64,000 nucleotides of DNA from Sphingobacteriales bacterium. Its GTDB lineage: Bacteria > Bacteroidota > Bacteroidia > Chitinophagales > JADJOU01. Below, in pieces: positions 330 through 15,660 of this stretch. The translations under genes and the position numbers were made by a program. The notes below the pieces were generated by a model that was not told the origin of the DNA, searched no databases, and saw only the letters and a program-made list of their open reading frames with translations. The stretch covers positions 203 through 64,202 of the forward strand of contig JAJTHM010000063.1 of assembly GCA_021297855.1 (NCBI GenBank). Reading direction: 5' to 3'. Numbering within the stretch: position 1 is the stretch's first letter; each line of letters opens with the position of its first letter.

Positions 330-1088
330 ATGAAAATGAGACTAATTTTTTCACTTTTATTAATATCAATTTTATCTTGTCAACAAAAAAGGAATCTAGA
401 TTTATTGCAAAATCCTATCTATTTTGATCTAGGTAAAACAAGTGAAATAGTTAAATCAACTCAAATTAAACCTGAAGAGTATTTTGTTGATAGCACAACT
501 TTTGGAAGAAAAGCTTTTAGCAAAATTGAAATATTTAAATATCGAGTAAGTACTAGTGATGATGATAGTGTGTATGGATTAATTAGATTTTATAGTTTAA
601 GGAATAAAATATGGACCTTAAAAAACGAGTTTCAATATCAAAAAGATGGATTAACTGAATTAGATATTGAAATTTCTGACTATAACAATGATAAATACAA
701 AGATATTACATTTGCTTCAGCCATTGCTGCAAGAGGTGCAAACGAAGTAAGGCAACTTATAATATACGATAAGAAAAAAGATGAAATAGTCTTTATTAAA
801 AACTCTGCATATTATCCAAACCTTAAGTATAATTCAACTCTAAACTGCCTTGATGCAATGTTATTTTATGGTGGAGTTTCAACAGTTTTCTTAGAGATAA
901 GTGGAGATAGTCTTCTGAAATTTGCAAGCGTTGATGTTGCAGATGGTTTATCAGTTAGTGAGTACGACAAAAATGGAAATGAGAAATTAATATATGAAGA
1001 TTCGATATATAAAGGAGAGTTCCCAAGATTTAAAAACTTCAAGCCAATAATTGAATATGGGCAGGAAGAATATAAACTACAGCTATAG
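330..1088 (+). CDS. hypothetical lipoprotein
   Basis: ORF 231-1088. An internal ATG at 330 gives MKMRLIFSLLLISILSC-QQ, a signal peptide with a lipobox Cys. The rest matches no family I recognise. Confidence 0.55.
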   Translation: MKMRLIFSLLLISILSCQQKRNLDLLQNPIYFDLGKTSEIVKSTQIKPEEYFVDSTTFGRKAFSKIEIFKYRVSTSDDDSVYGLIRFYSLRNKIWTLKNEFQYQKDGLTELDIEISDYNNDKYKDITFASAIAARGANEVRQLIIYDKKKDEIVFIKNSAYYPNLKYNSTLNCLDAMLFYGGVSTVFLEISGDSLLKFASVDVADGLSVSEYDKNGNEKLIYEDSIYKGEFPRFKNFKPIIEYGQEEYKLQL

Positions 1089-1118
1089 ACAGAAAAAAGC
1101 CAGCCGCACATTTTAACA

Positions 1119-1169
1119 CATTTGGTTTTGTCCTGACACAGCGAAGCCCATGTCTCGCAGAACCAAATG
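1119..1169 (+). terminator. long imperfect hairpin; candidate terminator of the lipoprotein gene or operator in front of hen1
   Basis: CATTTGGTT (1119-1127) is the perfect complement of AACCAAATG (1161-1169). Pairing extends about 3 bp inward, and GACA (1135-1138) pairs with TGTC (1151-1154). It is followed by T-rich AGCTTTAATTTT. Confidence 0.35.
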
Positions 1170-1174
1170 AGCTT

Positions 1175-1182
1175 TAATTTTG
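1175..1182 (+). promoter_or_regulatory. Bacteroidota-type -7 promoter box (TAatTTTG) for the hen1 operon
   Basis: Exact match to TAnnTTTG, 31 nt upstream of the hen1 ATG (1213). No clear -33 TTTG. Confidence 0.35.
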
Positions 1183-1212
1183 CCACCGCACGACAACGAT
1201 ATTATTGACAAA

Positions 1213-2613
1213 ATGATTTTAAACATAACGACCACTCATAAACCAGCGACCGATTTAGGTTATTTGCTAAATAAGCATCCCGACAAATTTCAAACTTTGG
1301 AATTATCAGTTGGCAAAGCTCATGTGTTCTATCCTGAAAAAAGTGAAGAGAAAACAACTGTAAGCGTTTTGCTTGACATTGACCCAATAGATATGGTTCG
1401 TGGAGCAAGAAATTTGGGTGGTGACGGCTTTGCTCTTGGACACTATGTAAACGACCGACCTTATGTTGCTTCCTCATTTATGAGTGTGGCTTTATCAAAA
1501 GCGTTTTCATCTGCAATGAATGGAAAGTGTAAAGACAAACCCGAATTGGTTGATGTGAAACTTCCATTTGAAGTAACCATTGCTGTTATTCCCGCACCAA
1601 AAGGCGGAGATGTTTTAATTAGAAAATTCTTTGAACCGCTTGGCTACCAAGTTGAATTAATAAGACATCAATTAGATTCTAAATTTCCTGAATGGGGCGA
1701 TAGTAAATATTTCACTTTAAAGTTAAACCATACAATAACCACAAAGGAATTGTTATCTCATCTTTATGTTCTAATTCCAACCTTGGACAATGACAAACAT
1801 TATTTTGTAAGTGAAAATGAAATTGAAAAACTTTTGCAAAAAGGTGAAGGCTGGCTAAAAGAGCATCCTGAGAAAGAACAAATCATTAGGCGTTACCTTT
1901 TCAATTTAAATTCCTTATCGAGACAAGCACTTGAAAGATTAAGCGAAGGCGAAGAAATTGGAGACTTAAACGATGAATTAGTTGAAAAAACAGAAAAGCA
2001 AAAACGAAAAGAAACATTACACGATAAACGAATAAAACTTGTCGCAGAGAAAATAGCCGAATCAGGAGCAGAACGTATTTTGGATTTAGGTTGTGGAGAA
2101 GGAAAATTAATCAGACAATTAATAAAACAAAAACAATTTTCTGAAATTGTTGGAATGGACGTTTCTTACAATGAATTAATTAAAGCAAAAGAAAGATTAC
2201 ATTTTGAAGAAATGTCTCCGAAACAAAAAGAAAGAATTAATTTGTTTCAAGGCTCATTAACATACAAGGACCAACGTTTAGAAGAATTTGATGCAGCGGC
2301 AGTAGTTGAAGTGATTGAACATTTAGACTTGAATCGTCTTAAAGCATTTGAACGAGTTTTATTTGAATTCGCTAAACCTAAAACGGTTGTTTTAACGACA
2401 CCAAACCAAGAATTCAATGTTATGTGGGATAAATTGGATGCAGATGAAATGCGACACGATGACCACCGCTTTGAATGGACAAGAAAAGAGTTTATGGAAT
2501 GGTCAAATAAAATTGGAGAAAAATATAATTACAAAGTGGAGCTTTTCCCTATCGGTGACGAAGTTGAAAACATAGGAGCTCCTTCACAAATGGCAGTTTT
2601 TAAATTAATGTAG
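1213..2613 (+). CDS. hen1: 3'-terminal RNA ribose 2'-O-methyltransferase Hen1 (bacterial type, Pnkp partner)
   Basis: MILNITTTHKPATDLGYLLNKHPDKF N-terminal Hen1 domain. C-terminal SAM methyltransferase motifs ILDLGCGEG, VVEVIEHLD and HDDHRFEW. Start moved from the track's TTG (1180) to ATG 1213. Lies in an operon with Pnkp. Confidence 0.9.
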   Translation: MILNITTTHKPATDLGYLLNKHPDKFQTLELSVGKAHVFYPEKSEEKTTVSVLLDIDPIDMVRGARNLGGDGFALGHYVNDRPYVASSFMSVALSKAFSSAMNGKCKDKPELVDVKLPFEVTIAVIPAPKGGDVLIRKFFEPLGYQVELIRHQLDSKFPEWGDSKYFTLKLNHTITTKELLSHLYVLIPTLDNDKHYFVSENEIEKLLQKGEGWLKEHPEKEQIIRRYLFNLNSLSRQALERLSEGEEIGDLNDELVEKTEKQKRKETLHDKRIKLVAEKIAESGAERILDLGCGEGKLIRQLIKQKQFSEIVGMDVSYNELIKAKERLHFEEMSPKQKERINLFQGSLTYKDQRLEEFDAAAVVEVIEHLDLNRLKAFERVLFEFAKPKTVVLTTPNQEFNVMWDKLDADEMRHDDHRFEWTRKEFMEWSNKIGEKYNYKVELFPIGDEVENIGAPSQMAVFKLM

Positions 2614-2614
2614 T

Positions 2615-3601
2615 ATGAGTGAAATAATTATTTATCAATCCGAAGATAATCAAACGCAAGTTGAAGTGCAGTTTGAAGGGGAAACATTTTGGTTAACACA
2701 AGAACAAATTTCAGAGCTATTTGAAAGAGACAGGACCGTTATTACTAAGCATTTGAGAAATATATTTAAAGAAAATGAATTAGAAGAATTAGTGGTAAGT
2801 GCAAATTTTGCACATACCACTAAGCATGGCGCCATTGAAGGCAAAACACAGGAAAAATCTGTAAAGTATTACAACCTTGACGCTATTTTGTCCGTTGGTT
2901 ACCGCGTAAATTCCAAACGAGGTACCCAGTTTCGTCAATGGGCCACTAAAAGACTAAATGAATACTTAACAAAAGGCTACTCAATCAATAAAAAACGGCT
3001 GGAAGAATTAGGGCAAATTGTAAATCTCATACAAAGCTCTTCAAAAAATGAGGCCATTCATTTGCAAGAAGCCAAAGGCTTGTTGCAAATTATTACCAAC
3101 TATACACAAAGTTTTGTTTTACTAAACCAATTCGATAGCAATAGCTTAACTACCGACCTTTTGGATAAAACAGTAACTTATGAAATATCTTACAAAGAAG
3201 CCAAATTGGCAATTACTGAACTAAAAGCCCATCTTGAAACCAAAAAAGAAGCTACTGATTTATTTGGCAACGAAAAAGATGAAAGTTTTGAAGGTATTTT
3301 AGGAAACATTGTACAAACTTTTGGTGGGCAATATCTATATCCAAGCATAGAGGAACAGGCGGCACATTTGCTTTATTTTGTAATAAAAAATCACCCGTTT
3401 TCTGATGGCAATAAGCGCATTGGCGCATTTTTGTTTGTTTGGTTTTTAGAAAAAAACAAACACCGATTTAAGAAAAATGGCGAAGTGAAAATAAATGATA
3501 ATGGATTAGTAGTACTTGCTTTATTGGTGGCGCAAAGCGATCCTGCAGAAAAAGAATTAATGATAAAACTGGTTATAAACTTAATAAACAATGCAAATTA
3601 A
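2615..3601 (+). CDS. RhuM/Fic/DOC family protein (RhuM-like N-terminal module plus Doc-type Fic domain)
   Basis: N-terminus MSEIIIYQSEDNQTQVEVQFEGETFWLTQEQISELF...YNLDAILSVGYRVNSKRGTQFRQWAT is RhuM-like. The C-terminus carries the Fic-fold motif HPFSDGNKRIGA (3392-3427) of the Doc HxFx(D/N)(A/G)NKR type. It starts 1 nt after the hen1 stop. Confidence 0.85.
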   Translation: MSEIIIYQSEDNQTQVEVQFEGETFWLTQEQISELFERDRTVITKHLRNIFKENELEELVVSANFAHTTKHGAIEGKTQEKSVKYYNLDAILSVGYRVNSKRGTQFRQWATKRLNEYLTKGYSINKKRLEELGQIVNLIQSSSKNEAIHLQEAKGLLQIITNYTQSFVLLNQFDSNSLTTDLLDKTVTYEISYKEAKLAITELKAHLETKKEATDLFGNEKDESFEGILGNIVQTFGGQYLYPSIEEQAAHLLYFVIKNHPFSDGNKRIGAFLFVWFLEKNKHRFKKNGEVKINDNGLVVLALLVAQSDPAEKELMIKLVINLINNAN

Positions 3602-6167
3602 AGTACCCGAATTATCGCTTGTTGTTTTAATTGGTGTTTCGGGTTCTGGAAAGAGCAGTTTCGCCAAAAAACATTTTAAACGAACAGAAATTTTATCTTC
3701 TGACGAATGCCGTGCATTGGTTTCAGAAGATGAAAACAGTCAGTCAGCAACAAATGACGCTTTTGATGTTTTGTATTATATAGCAGGCAAAAGATTAAAA
3801 AGTGGCTTGCTAACAGTTATTGATGCCACAAATGTCCAAAAGGAATCTCGAAAAGGACTTATTGAATTGGGAAGAACATATCATTGTTTGCCTATTGCTA
3901 TTGTTCTTGATTTACCTGAAAAAGTTTGTGAAGAAAGAAATCAAAACAGACCAGACAGAAATTTCGGTGGACATGTAATTCGTCAGCAAAATCAGCAATT
4001 AAAGAAATCTATCAGGGGATTAAAGGACGAAGGTTTCAGACAAATTTATATTCTGAAATCACTTGAAGAAGTTGATGCTGTTCTCGAAATCAAAAGAGAG
4101 AAATTATACAACGATAAAAAAGATGAAACGGGACCATTCGACATCATTGGCGATGTTCACGGATGTTTTGACGAATTGCAAGAACTTCTTTTAAAATTGG
4201 GTTATTCAGTAAATAGGACTGAAGAAACTGAAAATAATTTTGGCTTTAGCGTTATTGCTCCCGAAAACAGAAAAGCAATTTTCGTTGGCGATTTAGTTGA
4301 CCGTGGCCCCGATTCACCAAATGTTTTACGTTTGGTTATGAGCATGGTAAATTCAGGGGTTGCATATTGTGTTCCTGGTAATCATGACTTGAAATTGCAG
4401 AAATACTTAAATGGAAAGCAAGTTCAATTAAAGCATGGATTAGAAGTAACAGTTAAACAATTAGAAACAGAAACTGCACAATTCAAATCAACTGTTGAGA
4501 AATTTCTTTATGGATTAATCAGTCATTATGTATTTGACAATGGTAAATTGGTTGTGGCTCATGCCGGTCTGAAAGAAGAAATGCAAGGTCGTGGTTCAGG
4601 TGCAGTTCGTTCATTTTGCATGTACGGTGAAACAACAGGAGAAATTGATGAATTTGGTTTGCCTGTAAGACATAATTGGGCAAAGGAATATCGTGGAAAA
4701 GCAAAAGTTGTTTATGGACATACTCCAGTTCCCAAAGCAGAATGGTTAAATAAAACCATCGACATTGATACTGGCTGTGTGTTTGGCGGTAAGTTGACAG
4801 CTATACGCTATCCCGAAGAAGAATTAGTTTCTATAAAAGCCAAAATGGTTTATTCCGAACCGTTAAGACCAATCAACTTTAATGAAAATCAAAAGATACT
4901 TAGTTCACAACAAGAGTATGACGATTTATTAAATATTGAAGATGTTACAGGCAAACGCATTGTACAAACAAGATTAAGAAATAACATAACCATTCGGGAA
5001 GAAAACTCAATCGCTGCACTGGAAATAATGAGTCGATTTGCAATTAACCCGAAATGGTTGATTTATCTTCCTCCGACAATGTCGCCTTGTGCGACCAGTG
5101 ATATTCCTGAGTATTTAGAACATCCAGCTCAAGCCTTGAATTACTACAAAAAAAGAGGCGTTGAAAAAGTGGTTTGCGAAGAAAAGCATATGGGTTCTAG
5201 GGCGGTATTGGTAATTTGTAAAGATGAAGAAACTGCGACAAAACGTTTTGGAGTTCAAAATGAAGGTATCGGAATTTGCTATACACGAACAGGAAGAAAC
5301 TTTTTCAATGATGCTGAAATAGAAAAGGAATTTATCGGTCGTGTAAATCAATGTTTGACCAAAACAAATTTTTGGGAAAAATTCAATACTGACTGGGTTT
5401 GCTTAGATGCTGAATTAATGCCTTGGTCTGCAAAAGCACAAGCTTTGCTAAAAGACCAGTATGCAGCAGTCGGTGCAGCCGCTGGTGGTGCATTACCTGA
5501 AGTTGAAAAAGCATTACAATTAGCTTTTGACAGAGGAATTAAAGATGCTTTACCCTCATTGGAAAAATTTGCAGTAAAGAATAATGCAATTTCAAAATAT
5601 GTAAAAGCATATCAAAATTATTGCTGGACAGTTGACTCTATTGACGATTATAAATTAGCTCCATTTCATATTTTGGCAACCGAAGGACAAGTTCACGTTG
5701 ACAAAACAAATGAATGGCACATGGAAAACATAGCCGAAATCTGTGCGGGCGACACCAAACTATTTATGGCGACACCTTACAAAATTGTAAATCTTAACGA
5801 CCAGACAAGTTATGACGAAGCTGTAAACTGGTGGATGGAATTGACAAAAAAAGGTGGAGAAGGAATGGTTGTAAAACCGTTCGACTTTATTTCCATAGGA
5901 TCAGAAGGACTTTTACAACCCGCTGTGAAATGCAGGGGAAGTGAATATCTAAGAATTATTTACGGCCCCGAGTACGACCTACCTGAGAATATTGAAAGAC
6001 TAAAAAACCGTGGACTTTCGAGAAAACAATCTTTAGCAATCAGAGAATTTGCGTTAGGTGTTGAAGGACTGGAACGGTTTGTGAAAAAAGAACCATTAAG
6101 ACGAATACATGAAAGTGTTTTTGGAGTTTTAGCATTAGAAAGCGAAGATGTTGACCCACGACTATAA
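3591..6167 (+). CDS. pnkp: polynucleotide kinase-phosphatase-ligase Pnkp (RNA repair)
   Basis: P-loop kinase GVSGSGKS (3633-3656). Calcineurin-type phosphatase motifs GDVHGC, GDLVDRGP, GNHD. Ligase adenylyl-lysine motif EEKHMGSRA (Lys codon 5184-5186). 858 aa, typical Pnkp size. The ATG overlaps the end of the Fic gene by 11 nt. Confidence 0.92.
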   Translation: MQIKVPELSLVVLIGVSGSGKSSFAKKHFKRTEILSSDECRALVSEDENSQSATNDAFDVLYYIAGKRLKSGLLTVIDATNVQKESRKGLIELGRTYHCLPIAIVLDLPEKVCEERNQNRPDRNFGGHVIRQQNQQLKKSIRGLKDEGFRQIYILKSLEEVDAVLEIKREKLYNDKKDETGPFDIIGDVHGCFDELQELLLKLGYSVNRTEETENNFGFSVIAPENRKAIFVGDLVDRGPDSPNVLRLVMSMVNSGVAYCVPGNHDLKLQKYLNGKQVQLKHGLEVTVKQLETETAQFKSTVEKFLYGLISHYVFDNGKLVVAHAGLKEEMQGRGSGAVRSFCMYGETTGEIDEFGLPVRHNWAKEYRGKAKVVYGHTPVPKAEWLNKTIDIDTGCVFGGKLTAIRYPEEELVSIKAKMVYSEPLRPINFNENQKILSSQQEYDDLLNIEDVTGKRIVQTRLRNNITIREENSIAALEIMSRFAINPKWLIYLPPTMSPCATSDIPEYLEHPAQALNYYKKRGVEKVVCEEKHMGSRAVLVICKDEETATKRFGVQNEGIGICYTRTGRNFFNDAEIEKEFIGRVNQCLTKTNFWEKFNTDWVCLDAELMPWSAKAQALLKDQYAAVGAAAGGALPEVEKALQLAFDRGIKDALPSLEKFAVKNNAISKYVKAYQNYCWTVDSIDDYKLAPFHILATEGQVHVDKTNEWHMENIAEICAGDTKLFMATPYKIVNLNDQTSYDEAVNWWMELTKKGGEGMVVKPFDFISIGSEGLLQPAVKCRGSEYLRIIYGPEYDLPENIERLKNRGLSRKQSLAIREFALGVEGLERFVKKEPLRRIHESVFGVLALESEDVDPRL

Positions 6168-6294
6168 GCCAACGCTTCTTAGTCATATACATTTGCAAGC
6201 CAATACACAAACCAATGCTATAACTTTTTTCGTTAAACTAAATCCCATCTATACTATCTTAGTCTAGAATATCCCAAAATGAAATCCATCTTTT

Positions 6295-9200
6295 ATGAAA
6301 TTATCATTGATCGCGCTCTTTTTTTTAGGGCTATCTAGTACGCTTATGTCTCAGGATTACAGCAAAGAATGGCAGGAAGTAGAAGCTTTTCAGCAAAAAA
6401 GACTGCCTAAGTCTGCGTTTGAAAAGGCGAATGATATCTTTGAAAAGGCTCTAATTGCCAATAATCAAGAGCAAATCGTCCAATCTATTTTCTATCTTCA
6501 AAACCTTTCATCACAACTGGAAGAGATAGAATACGATTCTCGCAGTCAGAAAGAGATAAAGTTTATAGAAAAGCACTTAGAAAAAGTTAATGGCGGAGCC
6601 AAGAGTATTTTATTAAGTTTTTTAGCAAATAAATATTCTCAGTTTCTCGATCAGAATTATTGGAAAATCAAAGATAGAACCAAAAATACAGGTAGCAGAG
6701 CAGAGGACTTAGCGCTTTGGACGATGGAAGATATTGAGAATATGACCCTAGAGCTTTACTTGAAATCACTAGAAGATGAGACCAATAAAAAGATAAAAAT
6801 CGCTCAGTACTCTAAACTAATTTCCAATACAGAATCGAACTACTGTCAGACACTATATGATTTTCTCGCTCGTCGAGCTATTCAGGCACTCAGCAATGAA
6901 AGACACTATATTTCCCAACCTGTTCATACCTTCCAACCCTTGCTGGATCATTTCTCCGCCGCTTCATCATTTATAAAATGGCCGATTAATTCGGGGAAAT
7001 CAGATTCTAAGAAATACACGGTTCTCAAATTATATCAAACCTTATTGGCAGATCATATAACAGATTCGGATCCTACCATTTTTATAGATCTGGATTTGCA
7101 GCGCATGGCTTTTGTTTACAATAATCTAGAGTATGAAACTAAATCTGAAATCTATAAGAAAAACCTGCAAGCCTTGTTTGAGAAATACCAAAATCATAGC
7201 GAATCCTATTATGCCCTGCTCACCATAGCTCAGGTGCTGTCAAGTGAAAGTCAGAACTATCGCTCCACAAAGGATAGCAGTGATCAATGGAAACTAAAAG
7301 AATCCGTGGCGGTCTGCAATCAAATCATAGAAAAATGCCCTGATCAGAACATCGTAGCGCAGGCGAAAAATCATAAGAACAATATCCTTCAAAATATTCA
7401 ATTTTCACCGACCTTAGAAAAAGTTTATTTGCCCAATAAGCCTATCCTAGGGCATTTGCAGTACACGAATCTAGATAAAATCTACTATCGTATCTATAAT
7501 AAAAAAATAGATGTCAATAACCTCTATGAGGAAACCTATGATCCCAAAGAGCAGTTTAGAAAGATATTTGAAAACTCGATCGCACATCAAGGACAATTCG
7601 CACTCACCAATCCTGGCGATTATTTCAGCCATACCACAGAGTTAGATTTCCCTTCCTTGCCGGTGGGAAATTATACCATTGTTTACTCGAAAAGCGCCGA
7701 ATTTAATTTGGGAGGGAATCTCTTGCACGCCGTTTCTACCTCAGTCTCCAATTTAGCCTACTTTCAGCATCGAGAAGTCGCGCACACCGATATGCATATC
7801 TATGCAGTGGATAGAGCCACAGGGAAGCCTTTGAGCGATGTTGAGGTGAGTCTCTATCAGACTTATTGGTCCAATAAGCGTCAGACTAAATTTATCAAGA
7901 CCTTAAACTCGAATAGCGAAGGCTTGGTTCAGTATCCGATTGAAAATTATCAAAATAATAATTATTTCTTTGTTTTGAAAAAAGGGGCAGATGTTTTGAG
8001 TGAGCTACAAGAAGACTATTTTTACAGAGATTATAACCATGATCAGGAAGGCATATCGGATAACTATTCCCTATTTCTAGACCGTGAAATTTATCGCCCA
8101 GATCAGACGATTTATTTCAAAGGAATCGCTTATCAGTCTTCGAATAAAGCCAATCCCAAATTATTGACAAACAAACCCATAGAAGTGATTTTCCGCGATG
8201 CCAATTACCAAGAAATAGCGAAGAAGAGCTTTGTGACTAATGAATACGGAACTTTCCACGGCGAGTTTACCGCTCCCAAAGGCGGATTATTGGGAAGAAT
8301 GACCTTAACCATCAATAATAATTCTACCAAAGAAGTGCGCATCGAGGAATACAAACGTCCGAGTTTCGAAGTGCTGTTTGATACGTTTAGACAGCAGGTC
8401 AAGCTAAGTCAGGAAGTCAAAATACAGGGAACGGGGAAAGCCTATAGCGGAGCGAATTTACCCAATACCAGCGTGAAATACCGCGTGACGCGCGCGACGA
8501 ATTATCCTTACTGGCGATGCTGGTGGATGCCTATACCGAGTGAGGAAAAACAAATAGCCTTCGGAGAGACCAAAACGGATGCCAATGGAAAATTCAATTT
8601 GTCTTTTCTCGCAGAGCCGGGGAAAGAGAATGCTTGGGATAAAAATCCTATTTATCAGTACACGGTGAAAATAGAAATGACCGATATCACCGGAGAGATG
8701 CAGATGGGCTCTACATCAGTTTCGGTTGGGAAAGTCGATTTTAAGTTAAATGCCGATGTGAGGCCAACGTATGGAAAAGATGATAAACTAGAAATACCTT
8801 TTTTCGTCCAAAACATTAATGGCCAGTTTGTAGATAAAAAAGTGGATATCAAAATCACGAAATTATCAGATCCAATGGTTCTCTATCAAACGCGCTATTG
8901 GGAAAAGCCAGAATTATACCTAATTACAGAGTCGGAGTTTAGAAAGAAATTTCCTTATTTGCCTTATGGAAATGAAGATAGAATAGAAAATTATAAAAAA
9001 GGTAGTGTGATCTATACCACTTCCAAACAAGCATCGAAAACCACTGGATTGGAGGGATTGAGTCTAGATATCAAATCCTACAAAGGAGGAGCTTATAAAC
9101 TGACTTTATCCGCACTAGATCAAGATGGTAAAGAACTGAGTATAGACAAATATTTTACGATACTGGATGAACAAGACCTCAGCAAGAACAAACCCGTTCA

Positions 9201-12200
9201 CATTCAGAATTTAAAATCGAGTTATGAGCCGGGAGAAAAGACCAATATTAGCTTGACAGGAAGTCAGGTAGGACAGCGCATTTGGTATTCTATCATCCGA
9301 AAAAATCAAAAATCGAGTCAAGCATGGACAGATGGTAGATCCGCTAAATTCTTTCTAGACCTGAAAGAAGAGGATAGAGGAGGAGCTTATGTTCTATGGA
9401 CGAGTATATGGAATAATCGCCTCTATTCAAACAAAGAATATTTAAATATCCCCTTTACCAATAAAGAGCTAGACATTGAATACACGAGCTTTAGAGATAA
9501 ATTAGCTCCAGGTCAGCAGGAAGAGTGGCGTATTAAAATCAAAGGTAAAAAAGGAGATAGAGTGATGGCAGAGGTTTTAGCCAATATGTATGATCAGTCC
9601 TTAGATGTATTCGCACCGAATCATTATTCCTTCTTTCCTTATCAGTCCTTTAGTGAAGGTTCTTCTATAAGTTCGCATAGCTTTACGCAGATAGGAAGTG
9701 AAGTCAGCTACCATAATCTAAATAGAGATAAATACTACGAGGTGGACGCGAAAACCTATCCGCAACTTCTTTGGCAGGATTCGTACTATGGCGTTGGATT
9801 CTACGGTGGTGGTCGAGGAAAAGGTCTAGTTAGCAGAATGGCAAAGTCTGTCAAAGCAGAAGCTATGGATGATGCCCCAATGGAAATGGCTACGATGGCA
9901 GCAGCGCCTATGGCTGCATCTGTTAATGGAATTTCAGAAGAAGATAAAGTAAGACCTCCAAAAATGGTTGATGTATTTAAACCTAGAAAAGAGAAAAAAA
10001 CTGGTGAAACAAAAAAACCAGACCCTATAAAAGTCCGCACTAATCTCAATGAAACCGTTTTCTTCCTTCCTAATCTAATGACAGATGCAGAGGGCAATGT
10101 TATTATTAAATTCAAAATGAATGAGGCCTTGACCAAGTGGAAGTTTATGGCTTTGGCTACGACGAAAGATTTGCAGATAGGGATTTCTGAGAAATCTATT
10201 GTCACGCAGAAAGACCTGATGATACAGCCGAATGCGCCTCGTTTTATGCGCGAGAATGATGAAATCTACATGACAGCACGTGTGACGAATTTATCGGATA
10301 AAAAAATAGCTGGCTGGGCTCGGCTAGAATTGTTGAATGCGGAGAACAATAAAGACGTGAATGAAAAATTTGGTTTGACTCAATCTCAGCAAATGATCGA
10401 AATCGAAGCAGGGCAGACCAAGGCGGTGGAATGGAAATTGCAAGTTCCGGAGAATATCTCTGCAATGACCTATAGAGTTCTCGCCAAGGCGGGCAATTTC
10501 TCTGATGGCGAGGAAAATACGTTGCCTGTTTTAACCGATAGAATGATCGTCACAGAAACGATGCCGTTTCATTTACGAGCGAATTCGAGTAAGACCTTTG
10601 ATTTCAAAGAAATGGCGGATAAAATCAAATCTCCTACACTGAAATCTAAAGTCTTTACCTTGGAGTATTCTGCGAACCCAGTTTGGTATGCGATTCAATC
10701 CTTGCCTTACCTTATGGAGTATCCCTATGAATGCACCGAGCAGATATTTAGTCGCTACTTCGCCAATTCACTCTCTAGTTCTATTGTACAGCGCTATCCA
10801 AAGATTCAATCGGTCTTCGAGTCGTGGAAGGGTACAGATGGAATGTTAAGTAATTTATCTAAAAATCAAGAATTAAAATCTGCCTTACTAGAAGAAACGC
10901 CTTGGGTATTGGATGCGCAGAGCGAAGAAGAACAGCGCAAAAACATTTCCGTTTTATTCAATCTATCTCGACTGGCAGAAGAAGAAAAATCGGCTATTGA
11001 TAAATTGTATATGCGTCAAGGTTCTTCAGGCTCTTTCCCTTGGTTCCCCGGTGGTTCGGACAATCCTTATATGACGCAATACGTCTTGGAAGGCATGGGG
11101 CATTTGAGTTTCCTCGGAGTGAAGAGTTATGAAACCAATGATAAAGCCAAAGCAATTTTAGATCGAGGTATTTCCTTTTGTGACGATTATATCGTAAAGC
11201 ATTACGAAGAAATGAAAAAATGGGTGTTGAGGAGTAAGGGAAATTTGAATGATGATCATTTGGATCCTTTTGCTATCCATTATCTATATACCCGTTCATT
11301 CTTTAATCATCCTATACCGAATGCTGCACAAAAAGTTATAGATTATTACAGTGGTCAAGGTAAAAAATACTGGGTCAATAAATCCATTTATCAGCAAGGG
11401 ATGCTAGCCCTTTATTTGCATAGAAAAAAGGATAACTCCACCACGCCTGCGATGATGAAATCTTTCCGTGAGCGCGCCAAAGTCAATGAGGAGAAGGGAA
11501 TGTACTGGGATAATGACTATGGTTATTTCTGGTATGAATTACCGATAGAGACACACAGTTTGATGACAGAGGTCTTCGAATACTTGAGCGAAAATCAAAC
11601 AGAGAAAGACAATCTCAAATTGTTCTTATTGAAGAATAAGCAGACCAATCGATGGAAGACGACGAAAGCCACGGCGAGTGCTATTTATGCTTTATTAGGT
11701 GGCAAGAATGATAAATTGGAATTGCCTTCCATGCCTACCATAAAAGTCGGAGAGGAAGTTTTGGATTTCTCAGTCAGCAAGATAGAGCAGGGAACAGGCT
11801 ATATCAAAAAAGCGTGGAAAGAAGATGAAATAAAAGCGAATTTCTCGAAGATAGAAGTTTCCAATCCGAATGCGAATGTGAGTTGGGGAGCGGTTTACTG
11901 GCAGTATTTAGAGACGATGAATAACATCAAAACCAATCAATCCAGTCCACTAAAAGTGCAGAAGAAAATCTTTATTGTGACCAATACTGAGAAGGGAGAA
12001 GTGCTCGACGAAGCCACTGCGTCCAACATCACTATAGGTAAGAAATTGAGAATCCGACTGACATTGATGGTCGAGCGCGAAATGGAATTTTTACATCTGA
12101 AAGATATGCGCAGTGCAGGACTAGAGCCTACAGATGCCGTTAGTGGTTACAAATGGTCCAGCGGTCTCGGCTACTATCAAACCACACGCGATGCTTCCAT

Positions 12201-12363
12201 GAATTTCTTCATCGACAAGATTTACAAAGGAACCTACACTATAGAATACGACCTTAAAACCAATCTTAAAGGTAAATTCTCCAACGGTATCACGACCTTT
12301 CAATTGATGTACGCACCTGAATTCAATAGCCACAGCCAAGGGCAGGAGGTGATTATTAGATAG
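6295..12363 (+). CDS. alpha-2-macroglobulin family protein (thioester-containing, secreted)
   Basis: 2022 aa with signal peptide MKLSLIALFFLGLSSTLMSQ. Thioester motif YPYECTEQ (CTEQ at 10732-10743). MG-domain-like repeats. Low-complexity candidate bait region AMDDAPMEMATMAAAPMAAS. Confidence 0.9.
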   Translation: MKLSLIALFFLGLSSTLMSQDYSKEWQEVEAFQQKRLPKSAFEKANDIFEKALIANNQEQIVQSIFYLQNLSSQLEEIEYDSRSQKEIKFIEKHLEKVNGGAKSILLSFLANKYSQFLDQNYWKIKDRTKNTGSRAEDLALWTMEDIENMTLELYLKSLEDETNKKIKIAQYSKLISNTESNYCQTLYDFLARRAIQALSNERHYISQPVHTFQPLLDHFSAASSFIKWPINSGKSDSKKYTVLKLYQTLLADHITDSDPTIFIDLDLQRMAFVYNNLEYETKSEIYKKNLQALFEKYQNHSESYYALLTIAQVLSSESQNYRSTKDSSDQWKLKESVAVCNQIIEKCPDQNIVAQAKNHKNNILQNIQFSPTLEKVYLPNKPILGHLQYTNLDKIYYRIYNKKIDVNNLYEETYDPKEQFRKIFENSIAHQGQFALTNPGDYFSHTTELDFPSLPVGNYTIVYSKSAEFNLGGNLLHAVSTSVSNLAYFQHREVAHTDMHIYAVDRATGKPLSDVEVSLYQTYWSNKRQTKFIKTLNSNSEGLVQYPIENYQNNNYFFVLKKGADVLSELQEDYFYRDYNHDQEGISDNYSLFLDREIYRPDQTIYFKGIAYQSSNKANPKLLTNKPIEVIFRDANYQEIAKKSFVTNEYGTFHGEFTAPKGGLLGRMTLTINNNSTKEVRIEEYKRPSFEVLFDTFRQQVKLSQEVKIQGTGKAYSGANLPNTSVKYRVTRATNYPYWRCWWMPIPSEEKQIAFGETKTDANGKFNLSFLAEPGKENAWDKNPIYQYTVKIEMTDITGEMQMGSTSVSVGKVDFKLNADVRPTYGKDDKLEIPFFVQNINGQFVDKKVDIKITKLSDPMVLYQTRYWEKPELYLITESEFRKKFPYLPYGNEDRIENYKKGSVIYTTSKQASKTTGLEGLSLDIKSYKGGAYKLTLSALDQDGKELSIDKYFTILDEQDLSKNKPVHIQNLKSSYEPGEKTNISLTGSQVGQRIWYSIIRKNQKSSQAWTDGRSAKFFLDLKEEDRGGAYVLWTSIWNNRLYSNKEYLNIPFTNKELDIEYTSFRDKLAPGQQEEWRIKIKGKKGDRVMAEVLANMYDQSLDVFAPNHYSFFPYQSFSEGSSISSHSFTQIGSEVSYHNLNRDKYYEVDAKTYPQLLWQDSYYGVGFYGGGRGKGLVSRMAKSVKAEAMDDAPMEMATMAAAPMAASVNGISEEDKVRPPKMVDVFKPRKEKKTGETKKPDPIKVRTNLNETVFFLPNLMTDAEGNVIIKFKMNEALTKWKFMALATTKDLQIGISEKSIVTQKDLMIQPNAPRFMRENDEIYMTARVTNLSDKKIAGWARLELLNAENNKDVNEKFGLTQSQQMIEIEAGQTKAVEWKLQVPENISAMTYRVLAKAGNFSDGEENTLPVLTDRMIVTETMPFHLRANSSKTFDFKEMADKIKSPTLKSKVFTLEYSANPVWYAIQSLPYLMEYPYECTEQIFSRYFANSLSSSIVQRYPKIQSVFESWKGTDGMLSNLSKNQELKSALLEETPWVLDAQSEEEQRKNISVLFNLSRLAEEEKSAIDKLYMRQGSSGSFPWFPGGSDNPYMTQYVLEGMGHLSFLGVKSYETNDKAKAILDRGISFCDDYIVKHYEEMKKWVLRSKGNLNDDHLDPFAIHYLYTRSFFNHPIPNAAQKVIDYYSGQGKKYWVNKSIYQQGMLALYLHRKKDNSTTPAMMKSFRERAKVNEEKGMYWDNDYGYFWYELPIETHSLMTEVFEYLSENQTEKDNLKLFLLKNKQTNRWKTTKATASAIYALLGGKNDKLELPSMPTIKVGEEVLDFSVSKIEQGTGYIKKAWKEDEIKANFSKIEVSNPNANVSWGAVYWQYLETMNNIKTNQSSPLKVQKKIFIVTNTEKGEVLDEATASNITIGKKLRIRLTLMVEREMEFLHLKDMRSAGLEPTDAVSGYKWSSGLGYYQTTRDASMNFFIDKIYKGTYTIEYDLKTNLKGKFSNGITTFQLMYAPEFNSHSQGQEVIIR

Positions 12364-14055: not shown

Positions 14056-15660
14056 TTAATAAGCGATCTTCACCCTTCTCAAATCCAAACCGTTCACTAC
14101 ATTCTGTCTTAAACCTTGGATATTTTTCTGCACGAGTCGTATAGACTGGTCATAAAAAATGGGCACTATAGGCGATTCTTCTACTAGGATTTGCTCCAAC
14201 TGTTTAGTCAATTGTTTCCGCTGTGTAGGACTCATTTCTGTTATTAATTTATCGTAAAGTTTGTCGTACTGAGCATTTGAAAATTGAGTGTAGTTTGGAG
14301 GGCTTCCATTTTTTGAATATAAACAAGCTAAATAATTCTCGGCATCGGGGTAGTCTGCCATCCACGATCGGCGAAAAAAGCCGAGTTTCCCTTGAGCAGC
14401 TAACTGCATCATCATATCGGCAGGGTGCAGTTTGATTTCAACCTCAAAGCCTGAATTGGTAAGCTGATTCGACAATAGCTCTGCCATTTCGACAAAACTA
14501 TTATTGATATGAAGTTCTAGTTTAGGTCTTTTTGTCGTTGAAAATCCTAGATTTTTGACCAGGTCTTTTGCTTTTTCTAGATTATAACTATAACCAGTGA
14601 AACTCGTGTCATAATTAGGCATTCCAGCCGACACGAAACCTTTATTCGCAGGTAGCACTAGATTGTACTTTAGGTATTGAGCGATTTCTGGGCGGTTGAT
14701 ACTATAATTAATCGCTTGACGAATCGATTTGTTTTTTAAAATAGAATTCGAATCCACCGCTCGAATTGCCATGTATTCGGTGTTGAGAAATGGTTTTTTG
14801 TAAAGCTGTGCTTTGGTTTGCCATTCGGGTAGAAGTTGTCCTTTTTGATTGAAAACTTGATGAATGATGTTTTGGTCTAAACCGGTGATAAAACTCAAAT
14901 TTCCTTTTTCAAAAGAAAAGAGTTCAGTTTTTTTATTTTCATTGAAGGTCACTTTCACATAATCCAAATAGGGGAGAGCCACACCATTATTATCTCTTAA
15001 ATGATAGTGTTGATTTTTTTGGAGAAATAAAACTTCCCCATCTTCCCATAGTTTGAATGTAAAAGCACCTGTTCCAGCGGGATTTTTTCTAAAATTCTTC
15101 CCATAATATTCAACAGCTTCTTTCGGCACTATAGCGCAGTAAGACATAGATAAGACTTGCAGAAATTGGGCATTGGGTTGGCTGAGATTTATCACGATAT
15201 GAAAAGAATCGATGATTTGAAATGGATGCAGGCTGTCCAATTTGTTTCGCAATGCCCATGAACCAGGGGAGGCCGTTTTAGGGTCAATTAATCGCCGAAA
15301 GGAATAAGCAACATCAAAAGCATTGAATTGTCTCGTGCTGTCAGAAGTTTGAAAACACGGATTTTTATGAAAATAAACACCTTTTTTGAGACGGAAATGA
15401 TAGCGAAGTTGATTGGCTTCTATCCAAAAACTATCAGCTAGGAGACGCTCTAATTCAGCATTGGAATCCAAAATAAACAAACCTTCGTATATGTGACTAC
15501 ATGCCCAAGTGGCAGCTATATCCTTTGCAAAAACGGGATCTAGGCTATTTAATCCTACTGCTTGGTTGTATTTGAAAGTATTGGACTTAATCTTTGAATT
15601 CTTATCTTGACAGGAAAAAAGAATGAAAAAAAATAGGTAAAAAATAAAATTGATTTTCAT
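14056..15660 (-). CDS. ABC transporter substrate-binding protein, family 5 (peptide/nickel type) lipoprotein
   Basis: 534 aa with lipoprotein signal MKINFIFYLFFFILFSC. SBP_bac_5-like sequence (LNSLDP..., YHFRLKKGVYFH, NPAGTGAF, WMADYPDAENYL). Confidence 0.8.
   Translation of the reverse strand: MKINFIFYLFFFILFSCQDKNSKIKSNTFKYNQAVGLNSLDPVFAKDIAATWACSHIYEGLFILDSNAELERLLADSFWIEANQLRYHFRLKKGVYFHKNPCFQTSDSTRQFNAFDVAYSFRRLIDPKTASPGSWALRNKLDSLHPFQIIDSFHIVINLSQPNAQFLQVLSMSYCAIVPKEAVEYYGKNFRKNPAGTGAFTFKLWEDGEVLFLQKNQHYHLRDNNGVALPYLDYVKVTFNENKKTELFSFEKGNLSFITGLDQNIIHQVFNQKGQLLPEWQTKAQLYKKPFLNTEYMAIRAVDSNSILKNKSIRQAINYSINRPEIAQYLKYNLVLPANKGFVSAGMPNYDTSFTGYSYNLEKAKDLVKNLGFSTTKRPKLELHINNSFVEMAELLSNQLTNSGFEVEIKLHPADMMMQLAAQGKLGFFRRSWMADYPDAENYLACLYSKNGSPPNYTQFSNAQYDKLYDKLITEMSPTQRKQLTKQLEQILVEESPIVPIFYDQSIRLVQKNIQGLRQNVVNGLDLRRVKIAY

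Follow-up and report, generated by a model that had tools for sequence, protein, structure and literature searches.

The hen1 and pnkp genes of an RNA-repair cassette in a Sphingobacteriales bacterium are separated by a horizontally acquired gene for a RhuM-Doc protein, which is probably an autonomous embedded toxin or defence candidate: a facultative passenger in a mobile immunity cassette rather than a core repair subunit. The cassette was analysed within a stretch of 64,000 nucleotides (nt) of contig JAJTHM010000063.1, hereafter the window, and coordinates are positions within it unless a locus is named. Inspection of the open reading frames (ORFs) and their junctions revealed three intact, tightly packed genes on the plus strand, the middle one carried by an inserted segment.

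1213..2613, plus strand: hen1, encoding the 3'-terminal RNA ribose 2'-O-methyltransferase (466 amino acids (aa); TIGR04074; Hen1_L and methyltransferase domains)
2615..3601, plus strand: RhuM-Doc gene (328 aa; PADLOC PDC-S23, Pfam RhuM and Fic, NCBIfam DOC_P1)
3591..6167, plus strand: pnkp, encoding polynucleotide kinase / 2',3'-phosphatase / ligase (858 aa; TIGR04075)
2603..3590, plus strand: segment inserted relative to the empty junction of the nearest relatives (about 988 nt; from the break and resumption of blastn homology and the junction sequences)

The TAG stop codon of hen1 occupies 2611-2613 and is followed after a 1-nt gap by the ATG of the RhuM-Doc gene at 2615. The RhuM-Doc TAA stop lies at 3599-3601, and the pnkp ATG at 3591 falls within the final 11 nt of the RhuM-Doc ORF. 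This packing, which argues for co-translation, is as claimed in an earlier reading of the same DNA (the original prediction). Pnkp does not follow hen1 directly in the window, where the 328-aa ORF lies between them. The first ORF is a full-length bacterial Hen1 equivalog and a predicted RNA 3'-end 2'-O-methyltransferase; it scored 693 bits against TIGR04074 (cut-off 340) over aa 2-464 of 466, matched Pfam Hen1_L (PF12623) with an E value of 1e-106, and contains ILDLGCGEG, EVIEHLD and DDHRFEW. Pnkp scored 1440 bits against TIGR04075 (cut-off 750) and carries AAA_33, Metallophos and PNKP_ligase domains in one polypeptide, with the motifs GVSGSGKS, GDVHGC, GDLVDRGP, GNHD and KHMGSR. The Hen1, Pnkp and RhuM/Fic identities given in the original prediction were upheld by these two models together with Pfam and NCBIfam DOC_P1, and every motif it quoted was found in the translations. 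Its start of the cassette at 1175 was revised: because homologues are 466-467 aa long and the ATG and leader are kept in eight relatives, the true hen1 start is almost certainly ATG 1213, rather than TTG 1180 or position 1175.

Comparison with empty cassettes defined the limits of the insertion. Blastn homology to the empty loci L006, L007, L032, L040 and L010 stopped at 2602 and restarted at 3591. In every filled site the left junction was found right after ..TTTA(C/A), and the right junction immediately before (A/G)TGGAAATTAA (ATGCAAATTAA in the window), a stretch that serves both as the former end of hen1 and as the start of pnkp. The empty junction reads ...ATATTTACTTATGGAAATTAA, with the Hen1 ending ..FTYGN overlapping the pnkp start ATGGAAATT (canonical form ..FTYGN/ATGGAAATTAA; protein endings are given here up to the stop codon). 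In the window the last 3-4 codons of hen1 were rewritten, to ..QMAVFKLM from the ..QMAIFTYGN of empty cassettes, and the new Hen1 tails across the filled sites were FKLM, FKLK, FKQS and FTIE. The inserted ORF ends ..N(N/G)(A/G)N (..NAN in the window), reusing the old ..GN tail of Hen1 that overlaps the pnkp start. Copies embedded in restriction-modification (R-M) operons end otherwise, in ..LIINLIN or ..ITDSP; the C-terminal endings differ between hosts, so it is the host junction that sets the RhuM-Doc tail. The insert holds this one ORF only and no transposase, and does not qualify as a transposon or insertion sequence.

To establish how often the junction is filled, we scanned one genome per GTDB species, which yielded 80 Hen1 loci with the following junction states.

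hen1 abutting pnkp: 55 of 80 loci
RhuM-Doc gene: 2 of 80 loci (L008, Chitinophagaceae; L009, Saprospiraceae)
two RlaP nucleotidyltransferase genes: 11 of 80 loci (Chitinophaga, Pirellulaceae)
other gaps: 5 of 80 loci
no pnkp downstream: 7 of 80 loci

RhuM-Doc was therefore absent from 78 of the 80 species-level loci. The five nearest relatives of the window cassette, the same L006, L007, L032, L040 and L010 (Hen1 94-97% identical), all had empty junctions; these empty relatives come from Chitinophagaceae, Sphingobacterium, Ignavibacteria and a cyanobacterial metagenome-assembled genome (Pseudanabaena). The canonical tail class x[YH][GE]N was present in about 100 of the 120 closest Hen1 protein clusters, and we therefore regard the empty overlap as the ancestral state. 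Six clusters with non-canonical tails were examined: one had a RhuM-Doc gene (L173), two had RlaP and a small ORF (L171, L172), and three had pnkp directly adjacent. A non-canonical Hen1 C-terminal tail was thus only partly valid as a proxy for insertion, with pnkp adjacent in 3/6 cases. In total five filled junctions were identified (the window, L008, L009, L173 and a remnant in L170), all of them in a horizontally mobile sub-clade with Hen1 at least 91% identical. The arrangement of RhuM-Doc with hen1 and pnkp is not due to chance, because the same junction is filled by RhuM-Doc in four other cassette lineages. Recurrence of the gene in phylogenetically separate lineages, to which the original prediction had looked, was borne out in part: RhuM-Doc does recur at the junction, within one closely related mobile cassette lineage only.

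Accessory genes in general can dock at the hen1/pnkp junction. In L071-L085 (Chitinophaga, Pirellulaceae), L171 and L172 it held one or two RlaP (PF10127) genes, sometimes with an ORF of 67-72 aa, and in L061, L063 and L052 it held small ORFs without a Pfam match. The RlaP insertions used the same junction point as RhuM-Doc. Since an insert leaves both genes undamaged only within a stretch of about 15 nt, a site-specific mechanism is not required to explain the shared insertion point.

The inserted genes were less alike than the DNA around them. The flanks of filled cassettes were 87-96% identical at the nt level, with just 70-73% nt and 60-74% aa identity between the inserted genes, and the window hen1 was nearer to that of the empty L006 and L032 (95-96% nt) than to filled cassettes (90-91%). 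Within the RhuM-Doc gene the window block 2701-2910 was 73-89% identical to R-M alleles, compared with 48-64% to L008, L009 and L170, and the 3' third of the gene was about equally similar to all compared alleles. This mosaic identity along the gene shows that hen1/pnkp junctions do not have a private, co-diverging lineage of alleles. Repeated filling of the junction, allele replacement through recombination with R-M copies, or a combination of the two would explain this. We also observed that the nearest neighbour of the window hen1 was L006 (95.9% nt) and that of the window pnkp was L007 (96.0% nt, compared with 91.6% to L006); these different nearest neighbours suggest recombination between lineages within the cassette.

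In the L170 locus an intact 322-aa RhuM-Doc (P0033, 73% identity) has a patatin gene on one side and, on the other, a gene for leucyl-tRNA synthetase that includes a DUF559 domain. Hen1 and pnkp survive there as stubs: a hen1 3' end of about 50 nt (4925-5000 of that locus), with an FKL-type junction as in the window, and about 70 nt of a frameshifted pnkp 5' end (5960-6040). Such hen1 or pnkp remnants beside other RhuM-Doc loci were found in L170 only. With the repair genes reduced to stubs and RhuM-Doc intact, the gene has been maintained there without Hen1 or Pnkp. The L170 passenger may have outlived its host operon, or it may have moved with small flanks.

The usual surroundings of the family were then compared with those in the window. 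The four closest homologues whose contexts were examined all (4/4) had hsdS on one side and hsdR on the other, the stop and start codons of neighbouring genes overlapping or abutting: P0001, P0005 (76% identity) and P0003 (78%), which are on Bacteroidota-type metagenome contigs, and P0025 (71%) from the betaproteobacterium Formosimonas. We also selected 80 metagenome loci by similarity to the window RhuM-Doc protein. Among these, L086 alone had hen1 and pnkp neighbours, and L086 represents the window organism (100% identity). The downstream neighbours with Pfam assignments (n=66 metagenomic) were HsdR in 11 cases, Cas1 in 4 and miscellaneous in the rest; the upstream neighbours (n=69 metagenomic) were HsdS in 9 cases and otherwise of unrelated functions, and some family members adjoined Cas1 or housekeeping genes. 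The commonest identifiable home of the family is between hsdS and hsdR of Type I R-M operons. No hsd genes were found anywhere in the window, so no Type I R-M donor locus is present there. RhuM-Doc homologues above 59% identity were found in metagenome contigs only (two collection scans), and IMG/VR held no close relatives of Hen1 or RhuM-Doc, only distant ones of 40-46% identity. RhuM-like and Doc toxins, often fused together, have been described in R-M operons alongside PrrC and proposed as toxins of multilevel defence (Anantharaman et al. 2013, PMC3710099). What defines the phage defence candidate (PDC) families is that they are embedded in operons of BREX, DISARM or Type I R-M systems (Payne et al. 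bioRxiv 10.1101/2024.01.29.577857). The window gene matches family PDC-S23 and is embedded in none of these; its host is hen1-pnkp.

The domain structure of the middle protein was examined using profile searches and a structural model, which located the following elements.

2615..2990, plus strand: Bro-N/KilA-N-like (RhuM core) putative DNA-binding domain, from Foldseek matches, followed by a long helical hairpin at about aa 101-174 in the model
3242..3598, plus strand: C-terminal Doc-type Fic-fold domain (Fic PF02661, DOC_P1 TIGR01550; motif HPFSDGNKRIGA at 3392-3427)
2789..2823, no strand assigned: 35-nt near-perfect palindrome in the RhuM-Doc coding sequence (TTAGTGGTAAGTGCAAA T TTTGCACATACCACTAA), a family-wide covarying dyad

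Over its full length the protein matched PADLOC PDC-S23 (E 5.9e-133, aa 2-326 on profile positions 5-325 of 327). Pfam placed Virulence_RhuM at aa 63-131 and Fic at aa 221-278. The RhuM match (PF13310) scored 87.1 bits against a gathering score of 33.7 and covered merely model positions 4-69 of 252, so that the core alone is shared; DOC_P1 (TIGR01550) scored 41.2 bits with a cut-off of 38.65. The AlphaFold model used was built from an alignment of 103 diverse rows and had a predicted local distance difference test score (pLDDT) of 89.7; an earlier model from a shallow alignment, with all rows at least 65% identical, had a pLDDT of 54 and was set aside. In Foldseek searches of BFVD the N-terminal domain matched Bro-N, KilA-N, antirepressor and repressor-domain phage proteins (E down to 2.7e-5), and its signature NLDxIISVGYRVNSKRGTxFRxWAT was almost invariant in the 103-homologue alignment. 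In the model the long helical hairpin connects this domain to the Doc domain, and the C-terminal half superposes on P1 Doc (3k33_A/3dd7_A) with a template modelling score (TM, target) of 0.72-0.73, a root-mean-square deviation of 3.2 A and a probability of 1.00. A profile search of PDB sequences returned 9vzc, a 'death-on-curing family protein' (E 1.6e-4).

The catalytic motif includes HPFSDGNKR at aa 260-268. It has the Doc form HxFx(D/N)(A/G)NKR, in which K stands where the Fic motif has its second G, and departs from the AMPylase motif HxFx(D/E)GNGRxxR by this K and by an A at the position of the final R. H260, F262, D264, G265, N266, K267 and R268 were at least 90% conserved in the 103 diverse homologues, down to 36% identity. 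These near-invariant catalytic residues indicate that the enzyme is under selection. Based on these matches and the model, the middle protein is a single polypeptide predicted to combine a Bro-N/KilA-N-like domain with a Doc-type Fic fold bearing a kinase-type motif. The family is very large, with 26,322 representatives at 50% identity (E <= 1e-3).

The palindrome has a fixed place in the gene, between the segments encoding the winged helix-turn-helix (wHTH) and the beta strands of the RhuM/Bro-N domain, and has arms of 10-17 bp. The equivalent position was palindromic in L001-L005, L008, L009, L087-L165, L173 and L177-L254, and 38 of 45 distant RhuM genes from viral contigs that encode the N-domain only also carried it. 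Pairs were counted sequence by sequence, since odd and even loop lengths shift the register and make MAFFT columns unsuitable. Across 68 genes with 54 distinct sequences, 754 pairs were Watson-Crick and 19 were other pairs, just 4 of them G-T. The palindrome was the strongest hairpin of the entire gene in about 66 of 88 genes, its complementarity often reached the dyad centre, and the peptide it encodes varied (VVCANFAHTT, TVAKNATV, TTTEFFSVV). The scarcity of G-U pairs and the cases with a loop of one argue for a double-stranded DNA dyad rather than an RNA hairpin; this dyad is perhaps an operator for the adjacent wHTH. Rfam had no family at this position, and no paper on the palindrome was found in the literature searched. 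The palindrome is inherited as a block with the wHTH-coding segment. We considered it as a recombination breakpoint and rejected this, because the breakpoints do not coincide with it precisely and the variable block spans about 2701-2910. It constitutes an unexplained cis element across the RhuM family.

The cassette that hosts the gene is itself mobile. Together with a leader of about 120 nt and a tail of about 50 nt, it was 90-96% identical across four phyla. In relatives attC-like imperfect palindromes, (G)GTAAC/GCTAAC ... GTTA(C/G)C, flank it on both sides in a co-oriented array; such repeats were located in L032 at 4587-4876, 6691-6850, 11059-11216 and 14700-14842, and also in the flanks of L006, L007, L009, L040, L057 and L059. 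The L032 array also carries GmrSD and SIR2-HerA defence cassettes. These arrangements in relatives look like an integron-type array of defence cassettes, in which case hen1-pnkp would be an unusually large cassette (4.2 kb) and its 94-97% protein identity across four phyla would be explained. Comparison of 1088-1212 and 6168-6245 gave no clear attC ends for the window copy, where homology stops short of the repeats; a possible attC remnant, CCAATGCTATAAC..GTTAAAC, is present at about 6220-6245.

Taken together, these data favour a passenger that entered from outside. The horizontally acquired RhuM-Doc gene entered the highly mobile hen1-pnkp cassette at the overlap of about 15 nt, the one site where an insert spares both genes; hen1 took on a new tail of 3-4 codons, and the incoming ORF reads into the old hen1 tail so that pnkp retains its overlapping start. 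By this route RhuM-Doc may gain transcription from the cassette promoter, translational coupling and co-transfer with the cassette. The protein would then act alone as a conditional toxin or as a candidate for abortive-infection-type defence, with the N-terminal domain sensing a trigger or restraining the enzyme. Its putative toxic kinase activity would fall on a translation factor, EF-Tu by analogy with P1 Doc, which the Doc domain would phosphorylate to halt translation. A defence function is suggested by guilt by embedding, and any synergy with tRNA repair would be optional and unnecessary for RhuM-Doc maintenance. Several observations weigh against an autonomous, horizontally inserted passenger. 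No convincing target-site duplication or terminal inverted repeat was found at 2603/3590, and no recombinase was found nearby; the original prediction had named target-site duplications as the mark of a selfish insertion, and the site bears none. No small ORF or antitoxin (Phd/YefM-type) was found upstream of RhuM-Doc, where the neighbour is hen1, and the literature searched held no biochemical or phage-challenge data on the RhuM-Doc/PDC-S23 family. Finally, the junction was filled in three of the nine species-level cassettes of the closest sub-clade, the window included, far above the expectation for a random junction, and RhuM-Doc may have some functional affinity for the hen1-pnkp operon.

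The same observations could be explained by a purely selfish addiction or hitch-hiking element, in which the Doc toxin penalizes loss of the locus without bringing the host any defence benefit. Fold and motif match Doc, which serves the P1 addiction module as its toxin; the gene persisted in L170 after its neighbours decayed and is located in highly mobile cassettes, which in relatives lie within attC-like arrays. However, no labile antitoxin partner is encoded, the close homologues (>59% identity) came from metagenome contigs and the IMG/VR relatives reached only 40-46%, and the preference for nesting in defence operons fits a defence role at least as well. We consider this explanation unlikely.

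A true three-component RNA-damage module, in which RhuM-Doc arrests EF-Tu-dependent translation during tRNA healing or senses or regulates the repair enzymes, would account for the fact that five cassette lineages carry the gene at this exact junction, their junction sequences being of at least three kinds, and for the translational coupling kept on both sides. A theme of tRNA damage also runs through the family, which accompanies the anticodon nuclease PrrC in R-M operons (PMC3710099), and elsewhere this junction holds RlaP, for which a role in RNA repair has been proposed. Against this, RhuM-Doc is missing from most cassettes, the closest relatives included; its alleles are interchangeable and mosaic with R-M-embedded ones and form no dedicated clade; L170 retains it without the repair genes; and the shared insertion point is forced by an acceptor of only about 15 nt. 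These points make such a module quite improbable. The original prediction had cast the protein as a stoichiometric third component of Pnkp/Hen1, which did not hold given its absence from 78/80 loci, its R-M homologues, the lack of a clade of its own and its survival in L170. The functional options offered there included a translation-arresting toxin and an addiction element, which stay in play; a dedicated Pnkp/Hen1 component is unsupported. A more specific form is that RhuM-Doc acts as an effector linked to tRNA damage, making EF-Tu arrest depend on the state of the tRNA pool and pausing translation while Pnkp/Hen1 heal, seal and methylate. We give this only a slim chance; if true, the trio would be a real 'damage, pause, repair' immunity module and the intragenic palindrome could be the operator or sensor controlling the Bro-N domain. 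Very doubtful is a protein that serves mainly as a DNA-binding regulator of the host operon, its Bro-N/wHTH region binding the palindrome in its own gene and its Doc domain being secondary: the modelled DNA-binding fold of the N-domain and the covarying dyad, co-inherited as a block beside the wHTH-coding segment throughout the family, speak for it, but the near-invariant Doc catalytic residues imply selection on enzymatic activity, and the dyad lies within the ORF rather than at a promoter.

Two conserved non-coding segments frame the three genes.

1088..1212, plus strand: conserved 5' leader of the mobile hen1-pnkp cassette, with a hairpin at about 1119-1169 and a -7-like box TAATTTTG at 1175-1182
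6168..6218, plus strand: conserved 3' tail of the cassette, ending where homology to other phyla ends

The leader showed 86-96% nt homology to cassettes of other phyla, its onset varying with the relative from about 1088 to 1176. Its hairpin (1119-1169 in the window; 6904-6966 in L032) lies directly upstream of the -7-like TAATTTTG. The arms were conserved in the leader alignment, with one compensatory change among relatives (TTTGGTTGC/GCAACCAAA compared with TTTGCTTGC/GCAAGCAAA); the fold z-score of the window hairpin was just -1.2 and is unremarkable, and an Rfam search found nothing in the leader. The Bacteroidota -7 box TAnnTTTG occurred at one site, before hen1, and not before the RhuM-Doc gene or pnkp, which is weak evidence. 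The TAATTTTG box may act as a promoter, and the three genes are probably co-transcribed from it, as the only -7-like box lies before hen1. A scan for sigma-70 promoters and terminators, ill-suited to Bacteroidota, gave no more matches than in shuffled sequences. In relatives a second conserved hairpin follows the pnkp stop codon (L032 10982-11051) and recurs behind another cassette (L032 4591-4660). Directly downstream, outside the cassette, 6295-12363 of the window encodes a 2022-aa ORF with a signal-peptide-like N-terminus, which may resemble a large alpha-2-macroglobulin or another surface protein.

Both the parts, Pnkp/Hen1 and embedded RhuM-Doc, and the phenomenon of nesting are already known; the host operon is new within the literature searched. 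Bacterial Pnkp/Hen1 has been described as a two-gene RNA repair system of the Clostridium thermocellum and Anabaena type (PMC3675462). The window cassette resembles it in its full-length Hen1, three-module Pnkp and hen1-to-pnkp order, and its empty relatives are coupled by an 11-nt overlap; in contrast to that system, a 988-nt foreign gene splits the overlap in the window and the last 3-4 residues of Hen1 are replaced. The original prediction knew of no description of the trio, and likewise we found no account of hen1-pnkp as a host for RhuM-Doc in the literature searched, which leaves aside the main comparison of RNA-repair gene neighbourhoods (Burroughs & Aravind 2016). With the R-M-embedded RhuM/Doc genes (PMC3710099; PDC-S23) the window gene shares its family, at 71-78% identity, and nesting with overlapping or abutting stop and start codons; it differs in its host, an RNA-repair cassette rather than R-M, BREX or DISARM. 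The hen1-RlaP-pnkp variants of Chitinophaga, Pirellulaceae and close metagenomic relatives likewise place an accessory gene at the same junction. As relayed in PMC12776372, Burroughs & Aravind 2016 describe RlaP (PF10127) as a Pol-beta nucleotidyltransferase specifically associated with RNA ligases, and RhuM-Doc differs in lacking the specific RNA-ligase association given in that account. Phage P1 Phd-Doc has in common with the window protein the motif HxFxDxNKR and, in the model, the fold (TM 0.72). It differs in that no Phd gene is present and the window Doc is fused to an N-terminal Bro-N/helical region of about 210 aa, which may take over regulation.

The arrangement also resembles PrrC in the EcoprrI Type I R-M operon, as a putative conditional effector that disables translation from within a defence operon. 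The two proteins are unrelated, and PrrC, an anticodon nuclease, is known to be regulated by its R-M host; the comparison does not extend this dependence to RhuM-Doc. Junctions that are filled, empty or decayed make up a natural series: the passenger was accepted without polar damage by way of the old stop/start overlap, and it can outlive its host operon. Cassettes about 90-96% identical at the nt level with and without the gene, along with alleles swapped with R-M copies, provide a clean comparison set for the question of toxin, defence or modulator. RhuM-Doc nesting and the GmrSD and SIR2-HerA neighbours in relatives support placing Pnkp/Hen1 in the mobile immune gene pool rather than in housekeeping repair. 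'Guilt by embedding' is thus extended, as a family that nests in R-M, BREX and DISARM operons also nests in Pnkp/Hen1.

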